This document shows, in pieces, positions 26,203 through 60,410 of a stretch of 64,000 nucleotides of DNA (position 1 is its first letter; each line of letters begins with the position of its first letter). Origin of the DNA: an uncultured Verrucomicrobiae bacterium (lineage in GTDB: Bacteria; Verrucomicrobiota; Verrucomicrobiia; Limisphaerales; Palsa-1400). The notes below the pieces were generated by a model. That model did no database searches and was not told the DNA's origin. It saw nothing but the letters and a program-made list of their open reading frames with translations. The stretch spans positions 766,094 through 830,093 of the forward strand of contig CAVPOM010000006.1 of NCBI GenBank assembly GCA_963707025.1, given 5' to 3'. The translations under genes and the position numbers were made by a program.

Positions 26203-26940
26203 CTATTTGACACAGCCGGACGGCTCCCTGCGGAGCTGTCCGGCCTTTTTTGTCTCCGCCGGCGCCGGTTTCCCATCCTCCGCGCAAGCGGCCAGCGTCT
26301 GTTCAACCGCGGCGGGCAGACGGAGAAAGCAGGTCTGGAGAATTTCCTGGCGGGCCGCTTCGGATAAACCCGCCGCGCGCCCCGCTCCCAAGGCCAGTCC
26401 GCAAAGCGTCTCCCGCGCGTAGGTGAAAAGGCCGTGCCGCAGCGGCCGGGAATAAACCGCCAGGGCGAGGCCATAGACCACGGTGTGCCAGCCCGCCGCG
26501 TCCCCCGCCTCCACGGCGGCCAGGTAGCGCTGCACGGTGCGTTCATCGCGCAAGGGCCGCAGCCGCTCCAGTTGGGCGCGGCCAGTCCGGCGGCTGGCGG
26601 AGGCGAAGGCGGGCCAGACCGGTTTGGTCTCCAGCTGCCGGTCCAGCGCGAGCAATTCCCGCAGATGGCCCCGCGCCGCCTGGGCGCGCGCCCGGGTGAT
26701 GGCCGGCATTTCCAGCGGCACCAGAACATGGGTTTGGTAACCTTCCAGAAAATCGCGCAGACCGTTCCCGGCGCGGATGGCGCCCGGCGGCAGCCGCGCC
26801 GCCAGATTCTCCCAAAAGCCGTCCGGCGAGCCGAGCTGGCGCAGCAGGGCGGAAAACTCCCCCGGCAGCAGATCTGCTTCCTCCGGCGCGTTCTCCCGGC
26901 CTGGCGGCCGCGGTAGAGCGCTTGTTTCTGGCGGTCTCAT
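26203..26940 (-). CDS. UreF-like urease accessory family protein
   Basis: Helical protein with ASASRRTGRAQL, GWHTVVYGL and ARQEIL segments that resemble UreF. Confidence 0.55.
   Translation of the reverse strand: MRPPETSALPRPPGRENAPEEADLLPGEFSALLRQLGSPDGFWENLAARLPPGAIRAGNGLRDFLEGYQTHVLVPLEMPAITRARAQAARGHLRELLALDRQLETKPVWPAFASASRRTGRAQLERLRPLRDERTVQRYLAAVEAGDAAGWHTVVYGLALAVYSRPLRHGLFTYARETLCGLALGAGRAAGLSEAARQEILQTCFLRLPAAVEQTLAACAEDGKPAPAETKKAGQLRREPSGCVK
26215..26251 (+). terminator. Intrinsic terminator
   Basis: GCCGGACGGCTCC-ctgc-GGAGCTGTCCGGC followed by a T-tract. Confidence 0.8.
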
Positions 26941-27135
26941 GGGCTTCGCGTTGCCACGAACGTCGCTCAAAATTCCGTTCGCTCTGCCAGAGCCTAGCCG
27001 CCAGGCAGGCCCCGTCCAGCGGTAAAAGCTCAAAAAGAAAAATTTTTAAGTTGCATTTGCGCAAAATCGCAGTCTGCGCCCGGTTGGAAATTCCAGGCTG
27101 GCCAATTCTTTCCAGCCGGGTTAAATAACACGCCC

Positions 27136-27844: not shown

Positions 27845-28468
27845 TCAACCTTTGGCTGGTGCGCCGGCTTCGGCTTTCTTCGTTACGGCCTGGGCCTGGT
27901 CGAGCGCCACATTCAGCAGCAATACATTGACCCGCGCCTGGCCGAGAAAGCCCCACTGCGGCGGCTCAACGAATCGCTCAGTCAGCTCTTTGACTTTGTC
28001 CTCGCTCATGCCGCGCGAGGCGGCGACGCGGGAGATCTGAAGACGGGCCGCTTCGGGACTGATATGAGGGTCAAGGCCGCTGGCGGAGGCGAAGATCATG
28101 TCGGCCGGCACGATGGTATTCGTCGGCAGGTTGTTCCCGCTGATGAATGCTGCGGCGTTGTTCACGACATTCGTATGCAAGGCCCCGCTGGTGGGTCCCA
28201 GGTTGCTGCCACTGGACGCAGTAATGCCCGTTCCCCCCGTGCCGTAGCTGCAAGCCGACGGCCGCGGCCAGAAATAATTGGTGCCTTGGAACTGCTGCGC
28301 CAACAAGGCGGAGCCAATGAGTTTTCCGTCCTGTTCCACCAGACTTCCATTCGCCTGTTTGGGAAACACGGTCTGGGCGAAGATCGTCATAACCACCGGA
28401 TACATGACTCCGGCCACAATACTCCACAGAATGGTCTGTCTGACTGCTTGGATAATAAGTTTAATCAT
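27845..28468 (-). CDS. kdpC: K+-transporting ATPase subunit C
   Basis: QANGSL, YFWPRPSA, SSGSNLGP, SASGLDPHIS and VNVLLLN motifs. Confidence 0.95.
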   Translation of the reverse strand: MIKLIIQAVRQTILWSIVAGVMYPVVMTIFAQTVFPKQANGSLVEQDGKLIGSALLAQQFQGTNYFWPRPSACSYGTGGTGITASSGSNLGPTSGALHTNVVNNAAAFISGNNLPTNTIVPADMIFASASGLDPHISPEAARLQISRVAASRGMSEDKVKELTERFVEPPQWGFLGQARVNVLLLNVALDQAQAVTKKAEAGAPAKG

Positions 28469-28505
28469 AGTATTTCCTTGTTTGTAACTTTTGGCATGAG
28501 CGGTA

Positions 28506-30697
28506 TCAGGGAGCCAGATGGACTGCCACCAGCAGCACATCAATCAATTTGATGAAAATGAACGGGACGATGATGCCGCCGATTCCGTAAATGAGCATGT
28601 TGTTGCGCAAAATCACCGCGGCGCCCAGCGGACGATATTTCACGCCCTTCAAGGCCAGGGGAATCAGCGCCACGATGATCAAGGCGTTGAAAATGACTGC
28701 CGACAGGATCGCGCTTTGCGGGGAGTGAAGATACATGATATTGAGCTTGTCCAGCGGGCCGCGGCCGCCAACGGTGGTGGCGTAGAGCAGTCCAAACATC
28801 GCCGGAAGAATCGCGAAGTATTTTGACACGTCGTTGGCGATGCTGAACGTGGTCAGCGCGCCGCGCGTCATCAGCAATTGTTTGCCGATTTCCACCACTT
28901 CGATGAGCTTGGTGGGGTTGCTATCCAGGTCCACCATGTTGCCGGCCTCGCGCGCGGCCTGGGTGCCCGTGTTCATGGCCACGCCCACGTCGGCCTGGGC
29001 CAGGGCCGGCGCGTCGTTGGTGCCATCGCCGATCATGGCGATCAATTTGCCGCCTTCCTGCTCCTTGCGGATGCGGGCCAGTTTGTCTTCGGGCTTGGCT
29101 TGGGCGATGAAATCGTCCACGCCCGCCTCGGCGGCGATGGCGGCAGCGGTGAGATTGTTGTCGCCGGTAACCATGATGGTCTTGATGCCCATTTTGCGCA
29201 GCTGGGCGAACCGTTCCTTGATGCCGCCTTTAACGATGTCCTTGAGATGGATGATGCCAAGCGCCTTGCCGCCATCGGCCACGAGCAGCGGGGTCGCGCC
29301 TTGGCGGGAGATTTCGTCAACTTTGTCCATCAGGCTCTTGTGGACCTGGCCGCCGTTCGAGCCGACGTACCGGACGATGGAGTCGGCCGCACCTTTGCGA
29401 ATGGAGCGGATGGGATGCGGAGCTCGCCTCCTTTTCAGTTGTGGCCAGTGCGGACACCGAGGACGAACGCCCGGCGAGAACTGATTCCCCTTTCGCTTTA
29501 AGGGAGGGAGTGTGCAAAACTTGCGGCTCGGCGAAGAGGTCAACGCCGCTCATGCGCGTTTGCGCGGTGAACGGGAACGAAGGTGGCGAAATGTATCGCC
29601 GACCTCCCGGCCGCGCAGGCCGTATCTTTCCTTGGCCAAAACCGCGATGGAGCGGCCTTCCGGCGTTTCGTCGGCCAGGGAGGCGAGTTGGGCGGCTTCG
29701 GCCAGTTCTTCGATCTTGACGCCCGGCGCGGGAATGAATTCGGTGGCCTGGCGATTGCCCAGGGTAATGGTGCCGGTCTTGTCCAGCAGCAGCACGTCCA
29801 CGTCGCCGGCGGCTTCCACGGCCCGTCCGCTGGTGGCCAGGACATTGCGGCGCATCAGCCGGTCAATGCCGGCGATGCCGATGGCGCTCAGCAAGCCGCC
29901 GATGGTCGTGGGAATCAAACAAACGATCAGCGACAGCAGCACAGGAATGGAGGTCAGCACCACTGCCTTCTGCCCGGCCTGGGCTTCGTTGTAATGGGCG
30001 TAGGGCGGCAGCACAAAGACCACCACGATGAACAGCGCCGTCAGGCTGACCAGCACGATGTTCAGCGCGATCTCGTTGGGGGTCTTCTGCCGTCGCGCGC
30101 CTTCAATCATCTCAATCATGCGGTCAAGGAACGAATGGCCGGCCTCTGCGGTGACGCGCACCACGATCCGGTCGCTGAGCACGCGGGTGCCGCCCGTCAC
30201 GGCGCTGCGGTCGCCGCCGCTTTCCCGCACCACGGGCGCGGATTCGCCCGTGATGGCCGATTCATCCACCGTCGCGATGCCCTCGACGATTTCGCCGTCG
30301 GCGGGGATCAACTCCCCGGCTTCGCACACAAACAAGTCGCCCGAATTTCAACTCCGTGCTGGCAGACCTGGACTTCCTTGCCGTTGACCAGCGTGCGGGC
30401 CATGGTCTTGGTGCGCATTTTGCGCAAGGCGTCGGCGTGGGCCTTGCCCCGGCCTTCCGCCATCGCCTCGGCGAAGTTGGCGAACAGGCAGGTGAACCAG
30501 AGCCAGAAGCAAATCTGGACGTTGAACAGGTTGAACTGGCCGGGCAGGAAGAGAATGACGGTCGTCCAGATGGAGCCCAGCCACACGACGAACATGACCA
30601 GGTTCTTGATCTCGTCGCGCGGGTGCAGCTTCTTGAAAGCGTCAATCACCGCCTGGCGGAACAACTCCTTGTAATTGAATTCGACTTTAGTGCTCAT
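28506..30697 (-). CDS. kdpB: K+-transporting ATPase subunit B (frameshifted, with N-domain insertion)
   Basis: [35 protein letters not shown] and [10 protein letters not shown] motifs. Confidence 0.95.
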
Positions 30698-30729
30698 AAT
30701 AGATTTTGCTAAACAGCATTGGACTGAGC

Positions 30730-32646
30730 TTAGAACGCTCGGCCCGCCAGCATCAACCCGTGCTCGACAATGGGCCCCAGGCAAAGCGCCGGGAAGAAGG
30801 TCAGCGCGGCGACGACGATGATCACGCCCGTCAAGCGTCAGGCCGAAGGTCCAGCCGTGGGTGGGCAGGGTGCCCGAGGAGGCTTCGACGGTCTTCTTGG
30901 AGGCCAGCCTGCCCGACGATAGCCAGCGCGGCAATAATAGGGATGAATCGTCCAATCCAAATGACAATGCCGGCGCCGATATTGTAGAAGGGCGTGTTGG
31001 CGTTGAGGCCGGCAAAAGCGCTGCCGTTGTTGTTGGCCGCCTCGCCAAAGCAGTAAAGGACCTCGGTCAATCCGTGCGGACCGCCGTTGTTCATGCTGGA
31101 CAGGCCTTGCGGCATCATCACGGCCAGAGCCGTCGGGATCAGAGCAGGCGACGTTTGGAATCAGAACGCCGATGACCGCCCAGGTGGCACACCAGGCGTC
31201 GAGTTTCTTGCCCAGATACTCCGGCGTTCGGCCGATCATCAGCCCGGCGATAAACACCGTGATGAGCACATGGAACAACATGCAATACATGCCGCAGCCG
31301 ATGCCGCCGAACAGAATCTCGCCAATCAGGATGTTCCACAGCGGCATCATGCCAGCCAGCGGCATCCAGCTATCGTGCATCGAATTGACCGAGCCGTTGT
31401 CAATCGCGGTGCAGGAGGTGCCCCACAGGACGCTGTTCATCACTCCGATCCGTTGTTCCTTGCCTTCCATGTTCGGCATCGCGCCCGCCAGTGACTGGAT
31501 TGGGCCGCGTCTCGAAATACCACGCCACTCACGAAGGAGAGCACATACAGCGCGAGCATCACGTAGAACAGGCACCAGGCGTGCTTCTTGTTGCCGACCA
31601 GCAAGCCGAACATGTAAACCTGCGCCATCGGCACGACGATGATCGCCAGCATCTCCAGGAAGTTGCGTCAACGGCGTGGGATTCTCAAACGGATGCGAGC
31701 TGTTGACGTTGAACCAGCCGCCGCCATTGGTGAAGAGCTGCTTGATGGCCTCGAAGCGAGGCCACGCGGCCCGAGCGGGATGGGCTGGGTCGTCCACTTT
31801 CGCATCCACCATGACGGGCGCGTTGGTCATGATCGGCTGCGCCTTTCGCATCCACCTGCGGCACATCCACCATCACGGCCACGCCGTTGGTCAGGACCGG
31901 CTTGCCGTTCGCGTCCAGCTTCGGCGACTGACACGACCAGTTGGATATTGGTCGTCACGTTGTTGCCCTTGTCATCGGTCTTTTGCACCTGGGTGGTGTA
32001 CGGCTCCATCAGATTGGCGGTTTGGTAAGGCTTCCAGGTCTGCGGAACGCCCTGCCAGGCAAGCGGAATGGCCCACAGCGCGCAGAGCGGCATGACGAAA
32101 TAGAGCAGGCCGCGGGTCATGTCCGTCCAGAAATTGCCGATGGTTTTGACCGAGGCGCGTTTCAAGCGCCCGCCCCACCGCCACCAGCACCGCCAGCCCC
32201 GCCGCGCCGCTGAGAAACTGATGCACCATGATGGCGAAGATTTGCGAAGAAGTAACTCATGGTGGTTTCGCCCGCATAAGACTGCCAATCGGCGTTGCAA
32301 GTGAAACTCCAGGCCTGCATGAACGCCAGGTGCCAGGAGCAGTTGTCCAGACTCCTGCGGATTGAGCGGACGGCCATTTCTGCGTCATGAAGATGGCCAT
32401 GTCCGCCACAAAGCCGACTGCCGGCGAAAAGCAGCACCGCCCAGAAGTATTGCAACCAGGTCATCTCCTCCGCTGGGATCAATCCCCGTCAGCCGGTAAA
32501 TCAGCTTCTCGATCGGGCGGAAGAATGGGCTGGAGAAACGTTCTCTCGCCCGTATAGACCTTATACATGAAGCGCCCCACCGGCGGCGTCAGCGCGATGC
32601 CCAGTCCGAAAAATAGCACGATCTGGATAATTTCAATTGTTGTCAT
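30730..32646 (-). CDS. kdpA: K+-transporting ATPase subunit A (many frameshifts)
   Basis: [41 protein letters not shown] and NNGSAFAG motifs. Confidence 0.93.
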
Positions 32647-32688
32647 AATTCAAGTTGCTCAATGTCATTTCAACTGCGGCCAACACCT

Positions 32689-32704
32689 TGCACACGCCGT
32701 GCCA
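32689..32704 (-). promoter_or_regulatory. sigma54 promoter of kdpABC
   Basis: TGGCACGGCGTGTGCA (GG-N10-GC), about 40 bp upstream of the kdpA ATG. Confidence 0.75.
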
Positions 32705-32943
32705 ACCTGGTTCGAAATGTGATAATCAGCTATGAGACAGCCGATTTTTGCATTGGATTCACAGTGCCGCCAGAGGGATTGCGCGGCTATCCGTGGTCAA
32801 AATGCTTAAATTTCAACACGGGTGGCCATGAAGAAACTCAAAGAACCCGTGGAAGTATCAAAATTCCATTAACGCGCCCGCCCGTTCGCGGCGAATAAAC
32901 GCTTTTGCAGTGAAGTTCAACTGGAACAGAGGCGGGATTCTGC

Positions 32944-33686
32944 TCAGGCAGCGGCGCTTATCATTGCCGGCGAAGCGGATTCGGGCGAGGTATTCTGGCC
33001 ATTCATCGGAAGAAGGAGACGATAGCCGGCGCTGCCTTCGGTTTGGATCGCACTTTCGTTGCCGGCTCCGTTCAACTTTCGGCGGAGACTGCGGATATAG
33101 ACGTGAAGATCGTGAAGTTTGTGTTCCGAGTCTATTCCCCAAACGCAACGGAGCAGATGTTTGCATGTGACCAGTTTTCCGGCATGCCGGGTGAGTATGT
33201 AAAGCACGGCCTCTTCGGTCGGTGTAAGATCCACTCGGCGACCCCCAAGGGCGACCCGATGGGACATAACGTCCACTTCCAGGCCGCCGTTTATGAACAG
33301 AGGGCCGTCGGGCTCACACGGCATCGAACGCTGGAGGACGCGCAGACGCGCCAGCAATTCAGAAGCGCCGAAGGGTTTGGTCATATAGTCATTCGCCCCG
33401 CTGTCCAGCCCCGCCACCTTGGTGCTCTCGTCGTCCCGGGCCGACAGAATCAGGACCGGAGCCGGTTCCATTCGCGCAATTGCAGCAGCACGGTGAGGCC
33501 GTCTATATCCGGCAAAGCCAGGTCCAAAATGATCACATCCGGTCGCCGCGCTACTGCTTCTTTAATCCCAGTCTGGCCACACTCGGCTTCATAGACTTTG
33601 TAATGGTGCGGTTCCAGGACGGCGCGCAGCAGGCGTCGGATCGGACGGTCCGCATCTATAAGCAAGGCGGTCGGATTGGGTTTCAT
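32944..33686 (-). CDS. kdpE: KdpE-like OmpR-family response regulator (frameshift near 33465)
   Basis: PDVIILDLALPD, DYMTKPF, LTPTE, LHVYIRSLRRKL and GYRL motifs. Confidence 0.75.
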
Positions 33687-33786
33687 TGGGCATCCTTCAT
33701 GGCGCTTCGCGGGACAGTCATTCGCGGCGTGTAGATTCACACGCCATGGCCCAGTTCGGCGCGGCTGAAACTTCTTTCATGTCACA

Positions 33787-33852
33787 AATATGAAGCTGCT
33801 TGATCCCGACGGCTAGTAAAAAGCAAAGCAAATCCCGTAAAAAAATTGTAAA
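33787..33852 (-). promoter_or_regulatory. KdpE-type box plus -10 element, facing the regulator gene
   Basis: TTTACA-N5-TTTACG, then 43 nt, then CATATT. Confidence 0.65.
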
Positions 33853-33891
33853 AAAGCCGAAAGGACCAGGAGGTCAACACTATCCCGGCTC

Positions 33892-33957
33892 TTGATATTC
33901 TTTTTACGCCCTTTGCCCCGCTTTTAATTACCCCGGAAACTGCTCGTGTGACATAGT
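33892..33957 (+). promoter_or_regulatory. KdpE-type box plus -10 element, facing the kinase gene
   Basis: TTGATA-N5-TTTACG, then 43 nt, then CATAGT. Confidence 0.65.
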
Positions 33958-33963
33958 GCATGC

Positions 33964-35091
33964 ATGAAAAACGCGATGAGCATTTGCAGCACAGAGGAGC
34001 GGTTGGCGGTTGCCGCCCCTTTGAGGCAACCATCGCGTTTTCATGAAGGAACGGCAACACCTGCATTCGGAGTCGAAAACAACCAGGCATCCTCAACCTG
34101 TCCTGCCTCTTTTTCCATGACGAACGACCTTCAGGTTGGCCAGGTGTTGGATGATCGTTTCAAGATTTTGGCTGTCATCAATCGCGGTGGAATGGCCTGG
34201 ATCTACGAGGCCCTGGATCGTCAGACCGGACGATCCGTGGCTCTGAAAGTTCCATTCCTTGAGATGGAATGCGATCCAGGCTTCCTTTCCCGGTTTCAAC
34301 GCGAAGAGAATATCGGCCTTACCTTGGACCACCCCTGTATTGTGCATGTTCTGCCTGCCGCGGAAAAGAGCCGGCCCTACATCGTGATGGAACACCTCGC
34401 AGGCCAGACCCTGGCCGCCGTTCTTCGCGAAAAAGCCCCCTTGCCTGAAAGCGAAGCCGTGCGCATCGTCAGCCGGATTTGCGAGGGGCTTGAGTACCTG
34501 CACCGGAAAGGAGTGGTGCATCGGGACTTGAAGCCGGACAACGTCATCCTCTGCAAGGATGGCACCATTCGCATCATGGATTTTGGCATTGCCAAATCCG
34601 AACATGTGCGGCGTCTCACGGTTGTCAACTTCCTGGCTGCGATGGGTACGCCCGACTACATCGCGCCGGAGCAGGTCCAGGGAAAGCGCGGTGATGCCCG
34701 GACCGACATTTATGCGCTGGGAGCGATGCTCTACGAAATGACCACGGGCTATCCTCCCTACGACGGCGACAACCCTTATGTCATCATGAATGCCCGCCTC
34801 GCCGGGGATCCCGAAGCGCCCCGCCACCGAAACCCGCGATTATCCCCCGAAATTGAGGAGATTATTTTACACGCCCTTGAACGCAACCCGTCGAAGCGAT
34901 TCCCATCCGCTGCCTCCATGAGGGAGGAGTTGAACAACTACAGCGAGGTCCATTTGACGGAACGATCCAAAAGGCTGCTATCTCCCCAACTTTGGAAAGC
35001 ACGTTTCCCATGGTTGCCGACAATCGCTGTTTTTGTTGCTCTCCAAATTGCGGTTTTCTTTCTTCTCTCCAGTCTCCTGAGTCAGAAATAG
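33964..35091 (+). CDS. Hanks Ser/Thr kinase with C-terminal TM anchor
   Basis: RGGMA, VALK, HRDLKPDN, DFG and GTPDYIAPEQ motifs; alternative start at 34117. Confidence 0.92.
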   Translation: MKNAMSICSTEERLAVAAPLRQPSRFHEGTATPAFGVENNQASSTCPASFSMTNDLQVGQVLDDRFKILAVINRGGMAWIYEALDRQTGRSVALKVPFLEMECDPGFLSRFQREENIGLTLDHPCIVHVLPAAEKSRPYIVMEHLAGQTLAAVLREKAPLPESEAVRIVSRICEGLEYLHRKGVVHRDLKPDNVILCKDGTIRIMDFGIAKSEHVRRLTVVNFLAAMGTPDYIAPEQVQGKRGDARTDIYALGAMLYEMTTGYPPYDGDNPYVIMNARLAGDPEAPRHRNPRLSPEIEEIILHALERNPSKRFPSAASMREELNNYSEVHLTERSKRLLSPQLWKARFPWLPTIAVFVALQIAVFFLLSSLLSQK

Positions 35092-35109
35092 ATTGCATAA
35101 ATCATCCAG

Positions 35110-35308
35110 ACTCCAGAATCGCTTTGGCGCCGAAACCGCCCGCCCCTTCGCCGTCGTCATTATTGGCGGCCTCATCACCGGCACCGTCCTTACTCTGTTT
35201 ATCCTGCCATTGCTCTTTCCTTTCTTTGAATCGAAAGAGGATCAGAGCATGTCCTTGGTCAACCTGGAAGAGCAACGCCGGGTCAACCCAGGAACCTCGC
35301 CCGCATAA
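35110..35308 (+). pseudogene. C-terminal relic of a CusA/CzcA RND permease
   Basis: GAETARPFAVVIIGGLITGTVLTLFILP matches the last TM of RND pumps; no upstream gene body. Confidence 0.7.
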
Positions 35309-35390
35309 CCCGGCCTGTGCCACAAAAAAGCCCATCGGCCAATGCGCCTCCGCTACCTGCGCCGAAAACGGCAGGCCCGGCCGCCCAGCA

Positions 35391-37190
35391 TCAATGCCCG
35401 TGCTTTTTGGCGGTGCTGAGGTACCACCAGAGCAGGAGAAAGAGGAGGATGTTCAGCAGGACCAGGCCGGCGACAATGGGCACCATGCGGTAGCGCGTTT
35501 TCCAGATTTGCGGAGGCTGGAGCCGCCGCCAGCGCTCCGTCAAGGGCACCTTTTCGTAATCGTCCAAGTCGGCTTTCATGGCGGCGGCGGATGGGTAACG
35601 GTTGGCCGGGTTGCGCTCCAGGGCGTGGAGGATGATTTCCTCCAGGACGGGGGTGAGTTTGGGGTTGACTTTGCGCGGCGGGGCGGGATCGCCGGTGAGC
35701 CGGGAGTTCATCACCACGTAGGGATTCTCACCCTCGAAGAGAGTCGAGCCGGTGGCCATTTCATAGAGAATGGCGCCCAGGCTGTAAATATCGGTGCGCT
35801 CGTCGCCGCGTTTGCCCTGGACTTGTTCGGGGGCCATGTAATCGGGGGTGCCCATGGCCGGGGTGAACCCGACGAAGGTCATGCGCCGGGCCTGGGCGGA
35901 CTTGGCGATGCCAAAATCCATGATGCGAATGGAGCCGTCCCGGCAGAGCATGATGTTTTGGGGCTTGAGATCCCGATGCACCACCTTCTGCTGGTGCAGG
36001 TATTCCAAGGCCTCGCAGATGCGGCTGGCAATGGCCACGGCATCGGCCTCGGGCAGCGGTTTGACTTCCTTGAGCAGGTCGGCCAAGGTGCGGCCTTCCA
36101 GGTACTCCATGACAATGTAGGGCCGGCTTTTTTGCTCCTCCACCGGAATGATTTTCAGCACCAAAGGGTGGCGGAGGGTCTGGCCGATTTCCTCCTCGCG
36201 CTCGAAGCGGGTGGACCCGGCCACATCGCTCTCGAACTGCATGTGCGGCACTTTGATGGCGACGGTTTGGCCGGTTTTGCGGTCGCGCGCCTTGTAAATG
36301 CAGGCCATGCCGCTGCGGCTGACGCACTCCGCGATTTCAAACCGGTTGTCGAGCACGGCGCCCGCGCTGTATTCTGCTTTGGCTTCCACAGTATGATTTT
36401 TCAGATAACCGGTCTGGACACCGCGAAAAAAAATGGCCCGATGCACCTGGTTGATGCGGATGACCTGAATGGAGATGTTATCCTCGCCGTTGCGTTTCTC
36501 AACCAATTTCAACAGGAGCCGGGCGGCTTCGGCCGGCTCGTGATGGCTGACCAAGTCCAGGATTTCCACGTCGGTGGCGAAGCCGTAGAGGCCGTCGGTG
36601 CAGAGCACAATGGTGTCCTGCGGATAGACTTCGCGCTTGATGAAATCCAGGCGGCAAATCGGTTCGCCGCCCAGGCTGCGGGTCAGGAGGGAACGGTCGG
36701 GGCTGGTCATGGCGTCGTTCTCCCGGATCAAGCCGTATTTGAGGCGAAAACCAACCTGGTTGTGATCGGTGGTCAGTTGTTCGATGCGGCGGCGGCGAAC
36801 CAGATAGGCGCGGGTGTCGCCCACGAAGCCGATGGTCACTTCGTTATGACGGAAAACCGCCGCCGTCAGCGTGGTACACATCTGGCCCAGTTCGGGGTTT
36901 TTCAGGGAGTCGTCATAAATGGCCTTGCTGGCTAAATCAAAGGCCTGGCGGATGACCCGGCGCGGATCCGGGGCGGAATTGGCCGTGCAGAATACATCCA
37001 GGGCGCTTTGCACGGCCAGGGCGCTGGCGATTTCGCCGCGGCGGCTCCCGCCCACGCCGTCCGCCATCACCGCGATGGCACCGTGGTCCCGCCGGTCCTC
37101 GGCGGTGTCCGGCTGCCAGAAACCGACCTGATCCTCGTTGTTGGAACGCACCGGACCGGGGACGCAAATTTCAGCGTAAGTCAGTTCCAT
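35391..37190 (-). CDS. Bifunctional PP2C phosphatase - Ser/Thr kinase with C-terminal TM
   Basis: RSNNED, ADGVGG, VGDTRAY, LCTDGL and EDNIS, followed by HRDLKPQN, DFG and APEQ. Confidence 0.93.
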   Translation of the reverse strand: MELTYAEICVPGPVRSNNEDQVGFWQPDTAEDRRDHGAIAVMADGVGGSRRGEIASALAVQSALDVFCTANSAPDPRRVIRQAFDLASKAIYDDSLKNPELGQMCTTLTAAVFRHNEVTIGFVGDTRAYLVRRRRIEQLTTDHNQVGFRLKYGLIRENDAMTSPDRSLLTRSLGGEPICRLDFIKREVYPQDTIVLCTDGLYGFATDVEILDLVSHHEPAEAARLLLKLVEKRNGEDNISIQVIRINQVHRAIFFRGVQTGYLKNHTVEAKAEYSAGAVLDNRFEIAECVSRSGMACIYKARDRKTGQTVAIKVPHMQFESDVAGSTRFEREEEIGQTLRHPLVLKIIPVEEQKSRPYIVMEYLEGRTLADLLKEVKPLPEADAVAIASRICEALEYLHQQKVVHRDLKPQNIMLCRDGSIRIMDFGIAKSAQARRMTFVGFTPAMGTPDYMAPEQVQGKRGDERTDIYSLGAILYEMATGSTLFEGENPYVVMNSRLTGDPAPPRKVNPKLTPVLEEIILHALERNPANRYPSAAAMKADLDDYEKVPLTERWRRLQPPQIWKTRYRMVPIVAGLVLLNILLFLLLWWYLSTAKKHGH

Positions 37191-37279
37191 CGTTTGCCTT
37201 GGTAACGACAAATGCGGCTGGCCTTCCATTCACGGGTCAAGGCCAGCCGCACCGGGAGGAAAAACTCCCGCAAGTTGAC

Positions 37280-39307
37280 TCAGACGGTTTGAGGTTTTGA
37301 GGTGAGAATGATTTCCTTTCCTTTGGACTTGCTGCTCATGAAGAAGTAAACGGTGCCGATAATGACCCAGACCGCCACCCCAAGGAGAGCGAGGTAAGGC
37401 GCCTTTGGATCCATACCTGCGACGAAGGACGGGCCGAGCACATAAAACAACATGCAACCCAAGTTGGCCAGGAGTCCGAAGGCCGGGACGAACATGTGCT
37501 TGAAGCCGTTGAAGGTGTGGTGCTCGCGGAAGGCTATAATGGCCACGATGCAGGTGGTCATATAGAGCAGGAACGTGCCGAAGTTGCTGATCAGCGTGAT
37601 GATCAGCACGCTGTTGGGCAGGCTCACGTAAGAATGCGGCGAGAAGATGCCGACGCTATACCAGAAAGTGTGCTCAAATTGTTTTTCCAACGGCGCCAAG
37701 TCCGCGCTTTGGCCGCCCAGATAGACCACGGTGGTCAGAATGCCGATGATGATGGAAATCCCGGCCAGGAACCAGACCGAGCGATGCGGGGTGAGGTTCT
37801 TGCCGTGCAACATGCCAAACTGGGTTGGAACTTCCTCATCGCGGCCCATGGCATAAGTCACCCGCGCCCCCGTGTTCATGCACGACAGGGTCGTGCCGAT
37901 CAAAGCCAGAAAGACCGTGAACGCCTCGATGAGCATGAAGGCCTTGCCCGCCGAATAGCTGCCAAAAGCCCAGGTGCCCACCAGAATCATCATGTCCCCG
38001 ATGGGCGCTCCGGAAGCGCCGGCGTTGGTGGTCGTGTAACCGCTGTTTAGGAAATAATTGGCGGCGAAATACTCGAACAGGTAACAGATCGCCCCTTGAA
38101 TCACCAGCGAGAGCAGGATGGCCCGCCCAATGTCCTTCTTCGGATTCTTGGCCTCTTCACCCATGGACGACACCGATTCGAAGCCCACCAGCAGCAGAAT
38201 CGCCACGCACGCCTGAATCAGGACCGAACCGAATCCATGCGGCGCCACGACCGAAGCGGCGTTCGTGTGGAAATTAAACGTGGTCGGGTCTTTATCCGTG
38301 CCCGCGCCGGTGACAGCATCCGCCGGCTTGTAGCTCATGATGAAGGGATCGGCGGTGGGTTTGCCATCCTTGTCCAAAATCACGTTGCCTTTGTCGTCCT
38401 GCTTCCAAGCCGGATAAGGGTCGCCTTCGCCCAAGCCCATGGCGGTCAGGCCGACCAGATCAACGGCATTGGTGTTCTTGGCCTTGTCCAGGTCGTCCTT
38501 GGCCACCATGCGGTCCTGTTGCTTGTAAATGGGCTGGCCCTTGGCGTCCACTTTGGGTGTGCTGGCTTTGTCGGCCCAAGTGTCCTGGACCGGCTTGCCC
38601 TTGTCGTCGGTGACGTTGACCTGGGCCACATTATAGTTGATTGGCGCTCCACCGGAAAGATGCAAGCCGACTTTGCCGTCGCCGTGGCTGGAGCGATAGG
38701 CGATGGCCATGATGGAGAAGGCGATCAAGGCGGTAATCTGGATGACGTTGATCCCCATGTTGACGGCCGTCGTGCCATTGACCCCGCGATAGGCGATGTA
38801 ACCGACGCCGAGGGAGAACACAATGCAGAACAGCCACATGAAGAGGGGACTGTTGTAGGTGCCGCTGAAGGTGGAGGGGAAGACCTGTCCGGCCAGCCAG
38901 CCGGCGAGGATGGCGGTGACGCCGACCATCAGCCCGGTATAAATCCAGTAATACAGGTGGCTGTTCCAGCCGGTGAAAAACTTGACCACGCGCGCCCACT
39001 TGAAGGCGCGGGTTTTGGAGAGGAAGGCCTGCTCGGCGAACAGGTAGGAGGAGCCGGCGCCGGGATACAACTTGGAGAGTTCCGCGTAGCTGACGGCCGT
39101 GGCAAAGCACAAGAGCAACGCAAACACCAAGCCCAGCCACATGCCGGCGGCAGCCAGCGGCGCCCCGTACAAGGACTGCTCCTGATAGGTGAGCCAGAGA
39201 AACGCTCCGGGGGCGATCAGCGCCATGGCGTTGATCGTCAGGCCGGTCAGGCCCAGTGTCGGCTTCATCGTGGTCGGTTTTTCCGAGGGTGAGTTAGCGG
39301 ATGCCAT
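37280..39307 (-). CDS. APC family permease with a large periplasmic insertion
   Basis: YAELSKLYPGAGSSY, GFESVSSMGEEAKNPKK and ARVTYAMGRD motifs; about 12 TMs. Confidence 0.9.
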   Translation of the reverse strand: MASANSPSEKPTTMKPTLGLTGLTINAMALIAPGAFLWLTYQEQSLYGAPLAAAGMWLGLVFALLLCFATAVSYAELSKLYPGAGSSYLFAEQAFLSKTRAFKWARVVKFFTGWNSHLYYWIYTGLMVGVTAILAGWLAGQVFPSTFSGTYNSPLFMWLFCIVFSLGVGYIAYRGVNGTTAVNMGINVIQITALIAFSIMAIAYRSSHGDGKVGLHLSGGAPINYNVAQVNVTDDKGKPVQDTWADKASTPKVDAKGQPIYKQQDRMVAKDDLDKAKNTNAVDLVGLTAMGLGEGDPYPAWKQDDKGNVILDKDGKPTADPFIMSYKPADAVTGAGTDKDPTTFNFHTNAASVVAPHGFGSVLIQACVAILLLVGFESVSSMGEEAKNPKKDIGRAILLSLVIQGAICYLFEYFAANYFLNSGYTTTNAGASGAPIGDMMILVGTWAFGSYSAGKAFMLIEAFTVFLALIGTTLSCMNTGARVTYAMGRDEEVPTQFGMLHGKNLTPHRSVWFLAGISIIIGILTTVVYLGGQSADLAPLEKQFEHTFWYSVGIFSPHSYVSLPNSVLIITLISNFGTFLLYMTTCIVAIIAFREHHTFNGFKHMFVPAFGLLANLGCMLFYVLGPSFVAGMDPKAPYLALLGVAVWVIIGTVYFFMSSKSKGKEIILTSKPQTV

Positions 39308-39463
39308 ACTTTTGTTTTTTATGTTTTATTGTTTGTTGTTATTAAGGGTTTTGATTCCGGGAAGGCGGTTTTGCATTGCGCGACCAGCGCATTTCCGCCA
39401 GCGATCCCAACTCGGAACCACTTCCAACTGTCTTTTCAGGGCTTGTGCCATTAACATTCCATT

Positions 39464-39479
39464 AGCAAAGTCAGTGCCA
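39464..39479 (-). promoter_or_regulatory. sigma54 promoter of the APC permease / PP2C-kinase operon
   Basis: TGGCACTGACTTTGCT, a near-perfect consensus. Confidence 0.85.
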
Positions 39480-39546
39480 ACGGTTTAAGCGGGCAGCGAA
39501 TAACATCCTGAGCCATAATGTATTACGAATTAAAAAATTTATAATC

Positions 39547-39584
39547 TTACAAATTCATTACAAGTACAATACAATTTTTAACAT
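39547..39584 (+). promoter_or_regulatory. Phased hexamer repeats (OmpR-family-like boxes)
   Basis: TTACAA 39547, TTACAA 39558, ATACAA 39569, TAACAT 39579. Confidence 0.4.
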
Positions 39585-39712
39585 TGTGTTAACCTTGCGA
39601 TTGGTTCATTTTGGTCAGATTGCCACTTTCCAAACATCTTCTGGCCAAATATTAAGGCAGAATTAAAAAGGGGGCGGTTGCCATCACAAATCCATTAAAT
39701 AGTAAGCCGTTC

Positions 39713-40500
39713 GTGGACAACGCAGCCACGTTTGTGGTACAGGACTTGCAGTCGGAATTCCATCTTAACGGAACCCATGCGATTGAGCCGGAGACAACAG
39801 ACAGCACCGAGGCTGACGAAAAAGTCAAAAACGGCATTCGTTACCTCGGCGTGAGGGAGCGCGCCGACAAATCTGTCGTGGCGCTCATCATTGATGGTGA
39901 ACGGCAAATGCGCAGCCTTCTGCGCATGATACTGGAACCCCAGGGCTACCGGGTTTATGAAGCCAAAACCGGGCAGGAGGGGTTGACCCACGCCGTGCAA
40001 TGCCGCCCGGAAATCATCATACTTGATCTGGGCCTGCCGGACATGGAAGGTACGGAGGTCTTGTTGCGATTCCGCGAATGTAGCTCCGTTCCGGTGGTAG
40101 TCTTGTCCCTGCGCGACCGGGAGGAGGACAAGGTGGCGGCGCTGGACGCGGGGGCGGATGATTTCGTGACCAAACCATTTGCCACCAATGAACTGCTGGC
40201 GCGACTGCGCGTGGCCCAACGACATGCGCGGCCGGGAATGCGCAGGCCCTTTTTAAAAGCGGGCCGCTGACGGTGGACCTGGCTTCGCGCAGCGTCATAG
40301 TCAACCGCAAACTGGTGAAGCTGACCGGGACGGAGTACGCGCTGCTCCGGCTGTTTGTCCGCAATGCCGGCAAGGTGCTCACCCATCCTCAAATCATGGA
40401 AGCGGTCCCCGGCAAGCCTGCCTTGCTGTTGACGGAGGCGAGGCGGGGGGGGTACCGGTTGAACGTTGAATCCCCCGCCCAGCCTGGAGTGGAGCGTCCG
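39713..40500 (+). pseudogene. Second KdpE-like response regulator; frameshift near 40240 and recognition helix missing (3' end uncertain)
   Basis: ILDLGLPD, LDAGADDFVTKPF and LTGTEY motifs; GKVLTHPQIMEAV is joined directly to PGKPALLLTE. Confidence 0.7.
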
Positions 40501-40565
40501 CCAGTCAAAGCCGCCACGACGCTGGCTGCCGGCGCCGCTCCCGCGCCAAAGGAGAAATCATATTT

Positions 40566-40902
40566 ATGCCTGACCAACCCGATCTCAAAACACCTCTTCT
40601 TGAGCCTCTGGAAACGGCCGTCGTTCCCGCCACCACGCCGCCGCTCGTCATCCAGGATTTCTTCAAAAAGAACACCGGGGTGAAATTCGCCATCATTTTT
40701 GGCGAATTCAAGACCCGGTTCTTCGAGAAGACCGAAAACCCGGTTCCGGAGGCGACCTACCGCAAATACAAGCTGCTGCGCCCTTCGCATTGGCTGGGCC
40801 GGCGATGGCTGGGTGATGGATGCCATTTCCGTGCAGGACCCCCTGGCCTGGAATGGCAAACACGAAGTATTCTGTCCGCTCGCCGGCACGGAGCGCCCTT
40901 GA
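40566..40902 (+). CDS. Hypothetical protein (frameshifted, possibly internally deleted)
   Basis: SD-like GGAG before the ATG; coding-like sequence that switches frame near 40790. Confidence 0.45.
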
Positions 40903-40949
40903 AAAGGGGGAATCCGGCCAGGGGCGCGCCAGTCCATCCCCGCGTTCAA

Positions 40950-40982
40950 TAAAAAGCCCCTCCCGTTTTTTGCGGGAGGGGC
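40950..40982 (-). terminator. Intrinsic terminator of the porin gene
   Basis: GCCCCTCCCG/CGGGAGGGGC stem with a T-tract on the minus strand. Confidence 0.75.
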
Positions 40983-41001
40983 CGAATGATTCCAAGTTAA
41001 C

Positions 41002-42258
41002 TTAGAATTTGTAGATGACGTTGGCCGCGATCGTGATGTCGTTGTGCTTGGTCGGGGTTCCTGGCACAGTGCCGCCGAAGTGAGGACTTCCGTCAGCGGA
41101 AGTATCCCAACGGAACTCCAACCGGCTGATCACGTTGTCCCACAGTTGGTACTGAACGGTTTCGGTCAGCGCCATCACTTTGGCTTCCTGCGGAACGCCA
41201 TTGGCCGCAAGATAGGCTCCATTCTCAGCGAACATGCTGTCAAACGCCGAGCCGTGGGCATATTCGGCGCGAGAGTTGAGGGTGAGTTTATCCGTCGCCT
41301 TGTACGACAGGTAGGCAGCCACCGTCGAGGCATAGCCTTCCACCGGGCCCAAGTCCGAATTATTGACCGTGTCCCAAGCCGCGCCCAAGGTCAGGCCTGT
41401 GACTGGGGTGTTGACGGTCGCGCCGACATATAGATGGGTCTTATCCACCACATGAGAATTCGCTGCCGGGGTGAAATAAGTGCCGGGCGCGGGATGGCTA
41501 TAGGCATTACCAGGACCGTAATCCAAGCCGACATAAAGGCCGGAGCCTTTGAGAGAACCCCAACTGTCGGGCGCGGTCAGACTGAGCAAGCTGACGATCG
41601 CTTTTTTGCTTTCAATGGTCGAAGGCACAACCCCTTCATCAAAGATCGGAGTGCCGCCGCTCATATTGCGGTTGAAACCGGCTGTCAACTCATTGGCGAC
41701 GCCTACTTGCAAGGAGACGCAGTCACTGAATTTATAGGACGCCAAAATGCCGATGTGTTCGGTGGGTTCGATGGTGTAGCCGTAAGAACGCGTAAAGTTC
41801 GGGTTCTTGTAGCTGTCGGTGGATTCGTAGCCAATGAGATTGTCCCACTGGCCAATCTGGAAGTCCAAGCCGTTGCCAACCGGGGCGCGCAAGGCGACGT
41901 AGGCTTGGCGAATCGGCGCGAAATCGCCCAGAGCGGCAAAAGAATCCGGGCCGTAATTCAGTTCGGCGGTGTAACCGGCCGACCATTGTCCCTCGTCCAA
42001 GGGTTTGGAGAGTTTAATGTCAACCATGTTCACGTTGAATCCGTCCTGTTTGCCGCCGTTGAACGAGTAGGGCGCGGGATTGCCGTTGCCCGTGCCCGGG
42101 TTCCATACGGCCGACGTGTCAACGTAGCCACTGATGGTGGTTGCCGACAACGCGGTCACCGGTATCGGGGTCGGCGCGGCCATTTGGGCGCGCAGACCAG
42201 GGGCGAGGCTGACCAACCCGACGGCGGCCAAACCTAATGTCCATTTATTCATTTTCAT
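41002..42258 (-). CDS. Outer-membrane beta-barrel porin (putative porin-2 / DUF1597-like)
   Basis: Signal peptide, ISGYVD, IRQAYV, IGYE and NFTRSY motifs; terminal YKF. Confidence 0.8.
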   Translation of the reverse strand: MKMNKWTLGLAAVGLVSLAPGLRAQMAAPTPIPVTALSATTISGYVDTSAVWNPGTGNGNPAPYSFNGGKQDGFNVNMVDIKLSKPLDEGQWSAGYTAELNYGPDSFAALGDFAPIRQAYVALRAPVGNGLDFQIGQWDNLIGYESTDSYKNPNFTRSYGYTIEPTEHIGILASYKFSDCVSLQVGVANELTAGFNRNMSGGTPIFDEGVVPSTIESKKAIVSLLSLTAPDSWGSLKGSGLYVGLDYGPGNAYSHPAPGTYFTPAANSHVVDKTHLYVGATVNTPVTGLTLGAAWDTVNNSDLGPVEGYASTVAAYLSYKATDKLTLNSRAEYAHGSAFDSMFAENGAYLAANGVPQEAKVMALTETVQYQLWDNVISRLEFRWDTSADGSPHFGGTVPGTPTKHNDITIAANVIYKF

Positions 42259-42362
42259 CAATCAGTTCCTCCTGCATTGTTGTTGTTGATTCGTTTCTAT
42301 GCGTCTTTTTTGGGGGTAAAAGACAGTTTACCCACCCGCACCAAAACGGTGCATTAAGGCGG

Positions 42363-54002: not shown

Positions 54003-54164
54003 TTGGGGAAAACTGAGGACTACACTGGAAAAGACACTGGATTTTCAATCGTTCTGGGTCACGACCTGTCACGCGTAGTCACTGCCTGGGCTGAACTGCC
54101 TGCCGCACTCAAGGCCGCAATCCTCGCGATTGTTGACACGGCCACGAAGGAGGGGGGCCAGTGA
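54003..54164 (+). CDS. Short att-adjacent peptide (start uncertain)
   Basis: DLSRVVTAWAELPAALKAAILAIV; its TGA overlaps the GTG of the next ORF. Confidence 0.45.
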   Translation: MGKTEDYTGKDTGFSIVLGHDLSRVVTAWAELPAALKAAILAIVDTATKEGGQ

Positions 54165-55012
54165 TACAGGAGCGGCACGGCGGCGAAGTAGAACGAGCAG
54201 AACCGATGCTGCGAGCCACCAGCTCGTCGGTTCTGCGGTCGAATGTTGTCTCAATTGGCGAGGCGGAAGGGGCGAGGGCGGTGCGGCCCGCCAGGGCCGC
54301 CCGCCCCGCCCTTCCTTGTCTATTGAGTAATAATTGCACCACAGAGGAGAAAACTGAACCTCTCAACATCCTCAAGGGCGGTCACAAACGCATGGCCCAA
54401 GTCCTCTTTTTGGAGATCATGGCGCTGGTCGCGCTTTACGGCATCGAACGAATTGGCTTTTTTACGCTCACCTTCGCGGACCACGTTACCAGCCTCCGGG
54501 AAGCGCAACGCCGTTTCCGCTCCATTCGCGCTCACGTCATCGTCAAACGCTATGAGCGGGCCATTGTGGTTTGGGAACGGCATGAATCCGGGAGAATCCA
54601 CTTTCACCTGGTCGTTGTCCTGGCCGATGATATTCGCACGGGCGCGAATTTCGCGGCCTTCAAATGCAAAGATTACCGGAGCGCAAACCGGGCGTTGCGG
54701 GCGGAGTGGGCTTTCTGGCGGAACACCTGCCCGGAATACCGCTTTGGACGGCATGAACTGATGCCCATTAAATCCAACGCCAAGGGCATTGCCCGTTACG
54801 TCGGCAAATACATCGGCAAGCCGAGGCGGAAGTGCCGCGTGCCCGGTTTGGCGACAGTCCGACAGCTACCGTCACGCAGGCGGCAACACCACCCGGCGCA
54901 ACCGATGGTTCAGAACTTCAAAAGAGGTACAGAAAAGGTGCGGTTGAGATTTGTTGGGCGGAATTTCAGGCAGTGCAAAACTCACATAACATACTTAACG
55001 CCACAACTTTAA
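54161..55012 (+). pseudogene. HUH rolling-circle replication initiator, probably truncated
   Basis: FFTLTF (motif I), IHFHLVV (HUH) and YVGKYIGK (motif III). Confidence 0.7.
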
Positions 55013-55016
55013 GAAG

Positions 55017-55092
<76 letters not shown>

Positions 55093-55183
55093 TAACCAAT
55101 TGCAAATACGTTACTTGCACGCTGATTTTTAGATGCAAATTTTCTTGTTGCATCCCACCGTTGTATCCCGTATATTAAACTCG

Positions 55184-56344
55184 ATGAAAGCGATATACGA
55201 AACTACGTCGGCGGAACGAGAAAGCATCCCGGCACCAAAGCGCGACCCGCACCTGTCCACGGATGGCAAGTGGCGCTCATTCCCGAAAGTCCCGAATTTG
55301 CTGCAATACGTCATTGCGGGAACATATTACGCTCGCTGTAAGGTCAATGGCAAGCCCGTACGTTCAAGTCTCGAAACCGACGTGTTTTCAGTGGCCAAGG
55401 TTCGACTCCCGGACAAACTCAAGGAGTTGCGGAAGCCCAAAGCAGTGGTCGGCACGTTCACCGATGGGCGCGTGCAATTCGAACAACAAACCAAGTGCGA
55501 CCACACCCTGGCGGAATTGTCGAAGGTTTATCGTCTTCGCTGCATTGAATGCCTCTTGCGCTCGTGGCCGGAACTGGACGCCAAAAAGGTGGACACCATT
55601 ACAGAACCGGAATGCCGTCAATGGGCGCAACGCTACGCCGAAAAATATGCTCCGCAATTCTTCAACAATACGCTCAACGTATTCCGCCAGGTTCTCGGGC
55701 TCGCCGGTCTTGGGCATGACGCGAATCCCGTTTTCAAAATCAAACGTCTGGGAGTGCGGTCAAAACCCTTGGAGCTTCCGACGACGGAGCAATTTGAGCG
55801 GCTGGTGGAAGTGATCGCCACATCCGGCGCTGGCCAGTCGAAAGACTGCGCTGACTTGGTGAGTTTCTTGAGTTTCACCGGCTGCCGCATCGCCGAGATG
55901 AAACAAGCCCATTGGCGAGATGTTGATTGGGACCGCAACGAAATCACCATCCAATGCGTGAAACGCCGTGCAACCAGCAATGCGTCGCTTACAAGGGTCA
56001 TTCCTTTGATTCCGGCGTTGCGCCAGTTGCTCGAACGGTTGAAACAGAAACAGCAGCCCCAGGCCGACGACAGGATTTGCCAAGTCTCAGAATGTCAAAA
56101 ATCGTTGACACGGGCCTGCCGCATTGTCGGTTGCGCCCGGCTCACCCACCATTCCTTGCGACACCTTTTTGCGACGCGCTGCGTTGAAAGCGGTATTGAT
56201 ATTCCGACTGTCGCTCGTTGGCTTGGACACAGTGATGGCGGAATGCTGGCGCTCAAAATTTATGGTCATTTGCGCCGGGAACATTCGCAAAGCATGGCCG
56301 CAAAAGTGACCTTCGGAACCAATGGCGCAGCGACAAATGGTTAA
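55184..56344 (+). CDS. Tyrosine recombinase / integrase
   Basis: TGCRIAE, HSLRH, LGH and IYGH catalytic residues; TTGCAT-17-TATATT promoter at 55148-55176. Confidence 0.93.
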   Translation: MKAIYETTSAERESIPAPKRDPHLSTDGKWRSFPKVPNLLQYVIAGTYYARCKVNGKPVRSSLETDVFSVAKVRLPDKLKELRKPKAVVGTFTDGRVQFEQQTKCDHTLAELSKVYRLRCIECLLRSWPELDAKKVDTITEPECRQWAQRYAEKYAPQFFNNTLNVFRQVLGLAGLGHDANPVFKIKRLGVRSKPLELPTTEQFERLVEVIATSGAGQSKDCADLVSFLSFTGCRIAEMKQAHWRDVDWDRNEITIQCVKRRATSNASLTRVIPLIPALRQLLERLKQKQQPQADDRICQVSECQKSLTRACRIVGCARLTHHSLRHLFATRCVESGIDIPTVARWLGHSDGGMLALKIYGHLRREHSQSMAAKVTFGTNGAATNG

Positions 56345-56624
56345 GGTCACAAAGACGCGCGAGCAAACCGTCTTGTTCAAATCCCGCTCGCTGGCCACTT
56401 GACCCGCCTTCGCCAGAGTCCTGACGGAAATAATTAAATCACAAGGTTTAGATTCGTGAAGAACGATCAGCTTTGCCCGCCGTACCGAGGTGAAAACCGC
56501 CTCAACTGGATTCTTCCATGTTTTGTCTGGTCTAATTGGACATTCCTGCTACCGTCTCAGTCGTTTAGAACTACGATTCAAAGAAACAGTTTTTTATGTG
56601 TGACACTGCAAGCAGTGAGATTTT

Positions 56625-56816
56625 ATGAAAGAACGTTGGCTGTCAGTTCAACAAATTGCGACGCATTTGGGCGTCAACCCGGATACGATCTACAAATGGA
56701 TCGAACGAAAGAAACTCCCGGCGCATAAAGTAGGACGCCTCTGGAAATTTCTGGCCTCCGAGGTTGACGAGTGGGTCAAAGGCGGCAAAGCGGGTCAGAA
56801 AAAGGAGAAAAAATGA
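56625..56816 (+). CDS. Excisionase-family (HTH_17, Mad1-like) DNA-binding protein
   Basis: RWLSVQQIATHLGV..DTIYKWI...LPAHKVGRLWKF...EVDEWV. Confidence 0.88.
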   Translation: MKERWLSVQQIATHLGVNPDTIYKWIERKKLPAHKVGRLWKFLASEVDEWVKGGKAGQKKEKK

Positions 56817-56852
56817 CGACCTCAACGAATCATCCCAAACAACCGGGTCATT

Positions 56853-58208: not shown

Positions 58209-58226
58209 AACATTTTTTAGGAGGAA

Positions 58227-60396: not shown

Positions 60397-60410
60397 AAGG
60401 GTAACATTAT

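Follow-up and report, generated by a model that had tools for sequence, protein, structure and literature searches.

A variant Kdp operon with a rewritten KdpA selectivity filter and predicted nitrogen-type promoters in an uncultured Verrucomicrobiae bacterium: a candidate ATP-driven ammonium importer

The systems known to be dedicated to ammonium uptake are the Amt proteins. In the K+ pump Kdp of Escherichia coli, the filter governs selectivity and the KdpB subunit is promiscuous; the wild type moves no NH4+, and the G232D mutant does (PMC12629597). Filter mutants pass only Rb+ and NH4+, never Na+ (PMC8385062; for Rb+ and NH4+ see also PMC6255902), and an NH4+ influx through Kdp is an older suggestion, as cited in PMC2877888. 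E370Q lowers the apparent affinity, extra negative charge near the vestibule raises the K+ affinity (PMC12629597), and S343 is one of four side chains lining the S4 site (bioRxiv 2021.01.09.426067). The pump is also regulated by phosphorylation: published work identifies the KdpD domain as the kinase that acts on S162, the serine of the TGES motif in KdpB (PMC11018627; on the KdpD-type kinase see also PMC7535926). Here we analyzed a stretch of 64,000 nucleotides (the window) from an uncultured Verrucomicrobiae bacterium (GCA_963707025.1, contig CAVPOM010000006.1), which carries a kdpABC operon with an altered KdpA filter. With moderate confidence, we propose that this variant Kdp is a nitrogen-regulated, ATP-driven ammonium importer, for NH4+ alone or together with K+.

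The variant kdpA gene (30730..32646, reverse strand; PF03814) contains 18 apparent single-base insertion errors, and it was read through the alignment of an intact relative (L031) to E. coli KdpA and to the window, E. coli residue numbers being obtained by counting along the former alignment. Compared with E. coli, KdpA carries T111C, T113A, N114D, G229F, A342I, S343D, and S462E, and keeps E370 and R493. In the alignment, four filter motifs, all on the reverse strand, are affected: FTCNADWQ at 32282..32305 (FVTNTNWQ in E. coli; T113A, N114D), LFTNGGG at 31717..31737 (LGTNGGG; G229F), CTAIDNG at 31393..31413 (TTAASCG; A342I, and S343D at the S4 site), and GEAANNNG at 31023..31046 (SSAANNNG; S462E in the pore helix). 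The canonical filter motifs (NTNWQ, GTNGGG, S-x-G, and S-x-x-x-NNG) were not found in the window KdpA. The SKT/Kdp fold is retained, as the L031 model (mean pLDDT 67, filter loops of low confidence) matches 7NNP, 6HRA, and 5MRW with E 6e-34, a TM-score of 0.87 to the solved chain, and 40% identity.

These changes are conserved. Among the best 120 relatives of the variant KdpA, FTNGGG is present in all 120, xCNADWQ and Glu462 in 119 each, and TAIDNG in at least 115 (two were unparsed and three not printed). The same genome encodes a second KdpA on contig C17, and both this copy and its best 120 relatives have the canonical filter and lack the variant motifs. Across the best 150 representatives of KdpA clusters formed at 50% identity, no F229 was observed, D343 and E462 were each observed once (the latter in a fragment of the variant clade), and A113 three times. 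In a FastTree tree of 138 sequences, the variant forms one clade (support 0.945, stem 0.28), which is sister to the C17 type.

The C17 copy belongs to an intact, canonical kdpABC, in front of which lies the gene of another kinase from the family found in the window. Within the order, 8 of 301 genomes carry the variant (identity of at least 75%, plus the source genome), seven of them along with a canonical kdpA; within the class, the variant occurs in 11 of 351 genomes, nine of them belonging to one family of another order. An exact DNA pattern search detected no variant motif in 301 genomes of another phylum (that of G810) or in five further entries. In G568 and in five of the nine genomes of the other order, a single kdpBC is preceded by two kdpA genes in tandem, one canonical and one variant (L200:5474-12091 for G568; also L220, L221, L223, L224, and L226); each kdpA has a KdpE-type promoter to itself and lacks a sigma-54 site. 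Judged from these sequences, the variant KdpA, marked by F229, D343, E462, and A113, is an addition beside the canonical copy that came about by duplication, both copies being kept. Two further observations concern these copies. A very divergent additional kdp set lies upstream of the variant operon at L227:4339-9300 (two kdpA-like pieces of 30-40% identity, kdpB 47%), and a small Cys-rich frame of about 130 residues, as read by eye, lies between the kinase and the canonical kdpA on C17 (L005:9580-9990).

The remaining subunits are unchanged at the motifs checked. The kdpC gene (27845..28468, reverse strand; PF02669, E 3.6e-65) is intact. The gene for the P-type ATPase KdpB (28506..30697, reverse strand) reads in pieces, with single-base insertions; it encodes DKTGT at 29769-29783 and, as the first-pass annotation had pointed out, TGES at 30240-30254. 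In the KdpB proteins of 48 variant operons, TGES, CLIPTT, and DKTGT are present in all 48 and the D583/K586 motif in 47. Co-evolved changes in KdpB were considered and rejected, as none is variant-specific and the differences track lineage (only six canonical KdpB were compared).

The second line of evidence comes from the promoters. We compared 80 metagenome loci carrying the variant, taken as the best of 247 (mean 13.4 kb), with a control set of 40 canonical loci (mean 17.9 kb) that belong to the same order; the variant loci are kin, and their counts are not independent trials. Sigma-54 -24/-12 sites are motif matches to the consensus. In the window, a predicted sigma-54 promoter of kdpABC (32689..32705, reverse strand) agrees with the consensus at 12 of 13 positions and lies about 59 bases before the start, a spacing that is the same in relatives. 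A sigma-54-like site within 300 bases was found in 17 of 71 variant loci and in none of the 40 canonical loci. Such sites also precede 15 of 47 APC permease genes (reverse strand, 2) and 19 of 32 genes for the nitrogen regulator PII (reverse strand, 1), and none of 41 kinase or 14 kdpD genes.

At 32802..32819 (no strand assigned), 114 bases upstream of the sigma-54 site, lies a predicted enhancer (12.1 bits) of the type found at PII, amt, glnA, and APC promoters. The 18-base model of this enhancer started from a dyad seen in promoter lists; it was seeded on five PII/APC promoters and refined on 51 PII/APC/amt/glnA sigma-54 promoters unlinked to variant kdpA. Its consensus is CTGGnCAAAAnnnGnCAG, and 34 of the 51 promoters reached at least 10 bits with their own locus left out. 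When training was restricted to 45 promoters from loci without variant kdp, 20 of the 32 variant promoters with a sigma-54 site held a match of 10 bits or more, usually 110-115 bases upstream, as compared with 2 of 49 variant promoters without a sigma-54 site. For the first enhancer model, 3% of shuffled sequences and none of 37 canonical regions passed. The classical NtrC palindrome was tried and rejected (0 of 25 kdpA, 0 of 30 PII, and 1 of 27 APC regions); a different dyad was found instead. In the genome, the enhancer lies 100-140 bases upstream of seven sigma-54-like sites, five of which precede glnK-amt, a glnK-KUP-like pair, the APC gene, regulator 2, and the variant kdpA. For the APC/PP2C-kinase operon of the window, a sigma-54 promoter is predicted at 39464..39480 (reverse strand, 12/13), with an 18.9-bit predicted enhancer at 39601..39618 (no strand assigned) between the divergent APC and regulator-2 promoters and a sigma-54-like site before regulator 2 at 39734..39750 (forward strand, 11/13). 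The window also contains a glnK-amt operon (4175-6359), 21 kb from the kdp locus, with a sigma-54 site at 4310 and a 15.5-bit enhancer at 4175.

PII genes are themselves associated with the variant, being present within 16 of the 80 variant loci (at most 120 bases upstream in nine) and in one of the 40 canonical loci. The PII-adjacent variants fall into four subclades of one crown group, and eight of them have PII directly behind the promoter module of the window's kdpA. Those PII proteins that lead variant operons (L097, L104, L114, L115, and L125) have altered T-loops, such as HIEIFRGSEY, relative to other PII copies. Separately, a cluster on contig C18 (L008:4101-14996) combines two PII genes, amt, and kdpE with genes for a CitMHS_2 carrier, for a KdpD whose N-terminal domain is divergent, and for a KUP/KimA-like carrier that has a Usp tail and whose first helix reads YGDWGTSKAY; the nitrogen-type enhancer of the PII gene that precedes the KUP-like gene scores 19.8 bits, and this would be a second relative of K+ carriers under apparent nitrogen control.

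Taken together, the rewritten filter and a predicted promoter whose predicted enhancer is that of the genes for ammonium uptake and glutamine synthetase make ammonium import likely. In the proposed mechanism, a sigma-54 activator of the nitrogen regulon is predicted to switch on kdpABC, the APC/PP2C-kinase operon, and glnK-amt together. By analogy with the E. coli mutants, the changed filter would admit NH4+, and under nitrogen shortage KdpB would spend ATP to pump it. The pump may be tuned or shut by the standalone kinase, by the orphan regulators, and by the PII encoded in the same transcript. A fuller version of this proposal, which we advance with a little less assurance, is that of a natural primary-active ammonium importer: the K+-channel-type filter of a P-type ATPase complex would have evolved to select NH4+, and the complex would stand in the nitrogen regulon, headed by PII. 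In other genomes its KdpA would be a second A subunit, exchangeable with the canonical one on a shared motor, and a fused kinase-phosphatase would switch a partner nitrogen carrier in the way that plant and fungal ammonium carriers are switched.

The most serious alternative, plausible and yet clearly less probable than ammonium import, is that the variant is still a K+ pump, with a higher affinity or another pH optimum, paired with a lower-affinity canonical subunit, and that nitrogen control was added in one sublineage to match K+ and glutamate pools. K+ and glutamate pools are linked. Several observations suit this alternative or weigh against ammonium import. The variant keeps E370 and gains two carboxylates while its canonical sister copy carries E370C, as a high- and low-affinity K+ pair would, given the effect of E370Q in E. 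coli; the KdpB sites are unchanged; and we found no tested E. coli equivalent of these specific substitutions in the accessible literature. One of the changes, D114, is present in 26 of the 150 KdpA representatives; because it is common, it is not diagnostic for the variant. The genome already has three amt genes, and control of an ordinary K+ kdp operon of the sigma-54 type has a precedent in Desulfovibrio (PMC3333781).

Further observations against ammonium import concern the promoters. Across the genome, 17 of 410 sigma-54-like sites pass the enhancer model, which is near chance, and the best score against the NtrC model (TIGR01818) is 487, under the cut-off of 558.6; a candidate activator is encoded at C6:145337-146752. 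The enhancer of the window kdpA is modest (10.6-12.1 bits), close to the level of those 17 sites, and overlaps a possible -10 box of a KdpE-type promoter, an overlap that could also explain part of the enhancer conservation. The glnA p1/p2 promoters of E. coli have a similar overlapping layout. The conserved KdpE-type box at 32856..32872 (reverse strand), which we so label by resemblance, is likely a second promoter of the sigma-70 type. Most variant loci have only KdpE-type promoters: the sigma-54 site is missing from 49 of 81 variant promoters, and the tandem operons use KdpE-type promoters, are followed by kdpDE, and have PII in none of nine cases. Because of these two observations, the nitrogen wiring is a sublineage feature, and its counts come from kin. 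Neither PII nor the APC module is confined to variant pumps. The sole canonical exception for PII (L265 of G549) has it at 8600-9160, between a kdpF-like small gene and kdpA, and in G237 an APC/PP2C-kinase/PII module lies beside a canonical kdp. What the K+ alternative leaves unexplained is the fixation of F229 and A113 beside K+-binding sites, as well as the glnK-amt-type promoter and the leading PII, for which the canonical pumps of the order give 0 of 40 and 1 of 40.

The first-pass annotation had suggested a K+/osmolyte uptake system under a dedicated kinase/phosphatase pair rather than under KdpD alone. In the form considered here, this is a single system in which Hanks kinases and a PP2C phosphatase replace KdpD and switch KdpB at the TGES serine. 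We consider this unlikely. The observation that kdpD is missing, made for the window, does not extend to the genome, in which a kdpD search found three genes with a KdpD domain (C3, C7, and C18), each near a kdpE, the C3 gene being full-length with intact Walker motifs. An extra kinase is unneeded for phosphorylation of TGES, because published work assigns that serine to the KdpD domain, and the KdpD encoded elsewhere would still phosphorylate it. There is no adjacent kdpD with a cognate kdpE; kdpD lies only on other contigs, the local regulators are orphans, and the KdpE-type box is present. In addition, the K+/osmolyte theme is probably wrong, because promoters and neighbors point to nitrogen.

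This explanation does have sequence features in its favor. TGES is kept, both kinases have the catalytic Lys, HRDLKPxN, DFG, and GTPxYxxPE, and the PP2C domain has the metal-binding Asp motifs NED, DG..GG, TDG, and EDN. A kinase of this family occurs at 45 of the 80 variant loci (16 of the 22 with wide flanks) and at none of the 40 canonical loci, and the KdpD domain is rarer beside the variant (15 of 80 versus 33 of 40). The survey of neighborhoods therefore bore out the proposed tie to kdp for the standalone kinase, which follows the variant kdp, and not for the PP2C-kinase, which was found with a full kdpABC at a single one of its 80 loci and instead follows APC and nitrogen genes. Moreover, kinase and kdpD are not mutually exclusive, as the kinase lies inside the operon, between kdpC and kdpD, in seven of the nine genomes of the other order. 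The orphan regulators are equally plausible kinase targets: beside the variant, Glu replaces the phosphoacceptor Asp in 17 of 41, as compared with Asp in all 10 cognate regulators. The one true element kept from the kinase-for-KdpD model, as far as gene neighborhoods tell, is the tie between the kinase and the variant kdp type. A small YnfA/UPF0060-like membrane gene was also observed between kinase and kdpD (L225:15785-16135) and is present in 14 variant loci.

Selection of some other cation (Na+, a divalent ion, or a small amine) by the variant filter is very unlikely; three carboxylates lie at or behind the filter, but the KdpB ion-site motifs are unchanged and the published filter mutants never pass Na+ (PMC8385062). 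Least probable of all is that the window kdp is a decayed copy among unrelated genes brought together by chance. In favor of this, frameshifts affect kdpB and both regulators as well as kdpA, and an internal part of regulator 2 is deleted. Against it, comparison with a relative of 88% DNA identity shows each of the 18 breaks in kdpA to be a single-base insertion (with several more in kdpB), and these look like long-read sequencing errors; frameshifts also occur in amt, kdpD, and kdpE on another contig; and the order kinase/regulator/kdpABC with its promoter recurs intact in relatives. The family is intact elsewhere, whatever the state of the window copy.

Rather than one system, the locus is two modules, and the APC/PP2C-kinase pair is probably a separate nitrogen-scavenging unit. 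The PP2C phosphatase fused to a Hanks kinase with a membrane anchor (35391..37229, reverse strand; assigned by domain matches and neighborhoods) lies next to the APC-family permease gene (37280..39307, reverse strand; family matches and fold search), whose product has a large periplasmic insertion. We examined the best 80 of 211 loci with PP2C-kinase relatives, from several phyla, two of which hold only the kinase part. An APC permease is present in 55 of the 80 loci and directly upstream in 49 (42 of the 62 with room), and nitrogen genes are present in 37 (amt in 29, PII in 19, urea carboxylase in 5, and glutamine synthetase in 4). PII leads APC in ten loci, including two pairs from the same or nearly the same genome. 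The permease probably carries an amine or ammonium, under the control of the kinase/phosphatase encoded with it. In one complete genome (L206 of G237), a single run reads canonical kdpABC, kdpD, APC, PP2C-kinase, a headless KdpD-like kinase, kdpE, PII, and kdpE.

The permease itself matches AA_permease families, with all NCBIfam models under cut-off, and the fold search gave 11-16% identity to many APC proteins. Its nearest solved sequence is GkApcT (E 1.6e-6), and its first helix reads APG where GkApcT has GTG; searches by fold, Atlas, plasmid, and solved sequence yielded no close solved or named relative. Two assignments were considered and rejected. The permease is not of the KimA/KUP type, since there is no KUP family match, KimA ranks 34th at 13% identity, and the KUP-like gene lies separately on C18; the K+ site of KimA/KUP, which we take to be the first-helix Asp/Tyr, has no counterpart here in that the first helix lacks Asp. 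Nor does the PP2C-kinase appear to replace GlnD on PII, as the genome has a gene with a GlnD domain and PII is near the PP2C-kinase in only 19 of 80 loci. Both the variant KdpA (31800-32010) and the APC protein (38300-38700) have periplasmic insertions rich in DDKG/DAKG turns, modelled as beta hairpins, and the canonical C17 KdpA has the same insertion as the variant.

The gene set described in the first-pass annotation was otherwise confirmed by the open reading frame list and Pfam: kdpA, kdpB, kdpC, two KdpE-like regulators, a membrane-anchored Hanks kinase, the PP2C-kinase fusion, the APC permease, and a BBP2 porin. Orphan regulator 1 (32944..33686, reverse strand; domain match) has one frameshift and is divergent from the standalone Hanks kinase (33964..35091, forward strand; PF00069), which has a C-terminal membrane anchor and no outer sensor domain and whose kinase part is 62% identical to that of the PP2C-kinase. 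Regulator 2 (39713..40470, end approximate, forward strand; domain match) is frameshifted and has lost about 25 residues of its DNA-binding domain relative to the other copy in the genome. The BBP2-family outer-membrane porin gene (domain match) occupies 41002..42261 on the reverse strand, and near it, at 42337-42353, is a palindrome that we take to be NtrC-like. The annotation was also correct that kdpF is missing: none is in the window, no fitting small frame precedes kdpA, and a profile search found no match to PF09604 in the 88%-complete genome. Just downstream of kdpC is a lone UreF-like urease accessory gene (26203-27033), and the region 54161-62954 is mobile, with Rep (ORF2/G2P), a phage integrase, an AAA protein, and an IS21-like transposase with its helper.

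In a literature search that covered subscription journals thinly, we found no description of an ATP-driven ammonium pump or of the variant KdpA clade. With a natural variant of this kind, the means by which a K+-channel filter distinguishes K+ from NH4+ can be approached directly, and in some genomes the two filters share a motor. If ammonium is indeed the substrate, the pump would let soil Verrucomicrobiota take up scarce ammonium against its gradient; if it is K+, the locus would still represent a hitherto undescribed Kdp that has two filters and a dedicated kinase. The APC and PP2C-kinase module, found in several phyla with nitrogen genes, is a second uncharacterized system.

Among described systems, E. 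coli KdpFABC (5MRW, 6HRA, and 7NNP) shares with the variant the KdpA fold, the catalytic and ion-site motifs of KdpB, TGES, KdpC, E370, and R493, and differs from it in the filter residues, in the periplasmic insertion of KdpA found here, and in having KdpF, an adjacent kdpD, and no sigma-54 promoter with a nitrogen-type enhancer. The G232D mutant of E. coli KdpA likewise combines a changed filter with an unchanged KdpB and shows that the pump can move NH4+ (PMC12629597, PMC8385062); however, it is an artificial, low-affinity mutant at another position, whereas the present variant carries several natural, conserved changes. In the kdp operon of Desulfovibrio vulgaris (DVU3334-3339; Rajeev et al. 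2011, PMC3333781), there are also several regulators and no plain KdpDE layout, but the regulator lies in the operon and responds to K+, whereas here the enhancer is common with nitrogen genes and neither a sigma-54 activator nor a split KdpD is among the genes of the locus. The tandem serine/histidine kinase KdpD (Silberberg et al. 2024, PMC11018627) has its counterparts in the conserved TGES serine and the Walker-motif KdpD domains of this genome, to which a Hanks kinase and orphan KdpE-like regulators have been added beside the pump. The kinase/PP2C pairs PknB/PstP and PrkC/PrpC and the APC carriers GkApcT and AdiC resemble the second module in catalytic motifs and APC fold, respectively; here, phosphatase and kinase are fused, lack PASTA or any other outer sensor, and are tied to an APC permease. 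Finally, the glnK-amtB operon under sigma-54/NtrC-type control is matched by the leading PII, the sigma-54 promoter, and the enhancer motif common to the PII-amt and glnA promoters of the lineage, but the transporter it is coupled to here is a P-type ATPase complex and not an Amt trimer.

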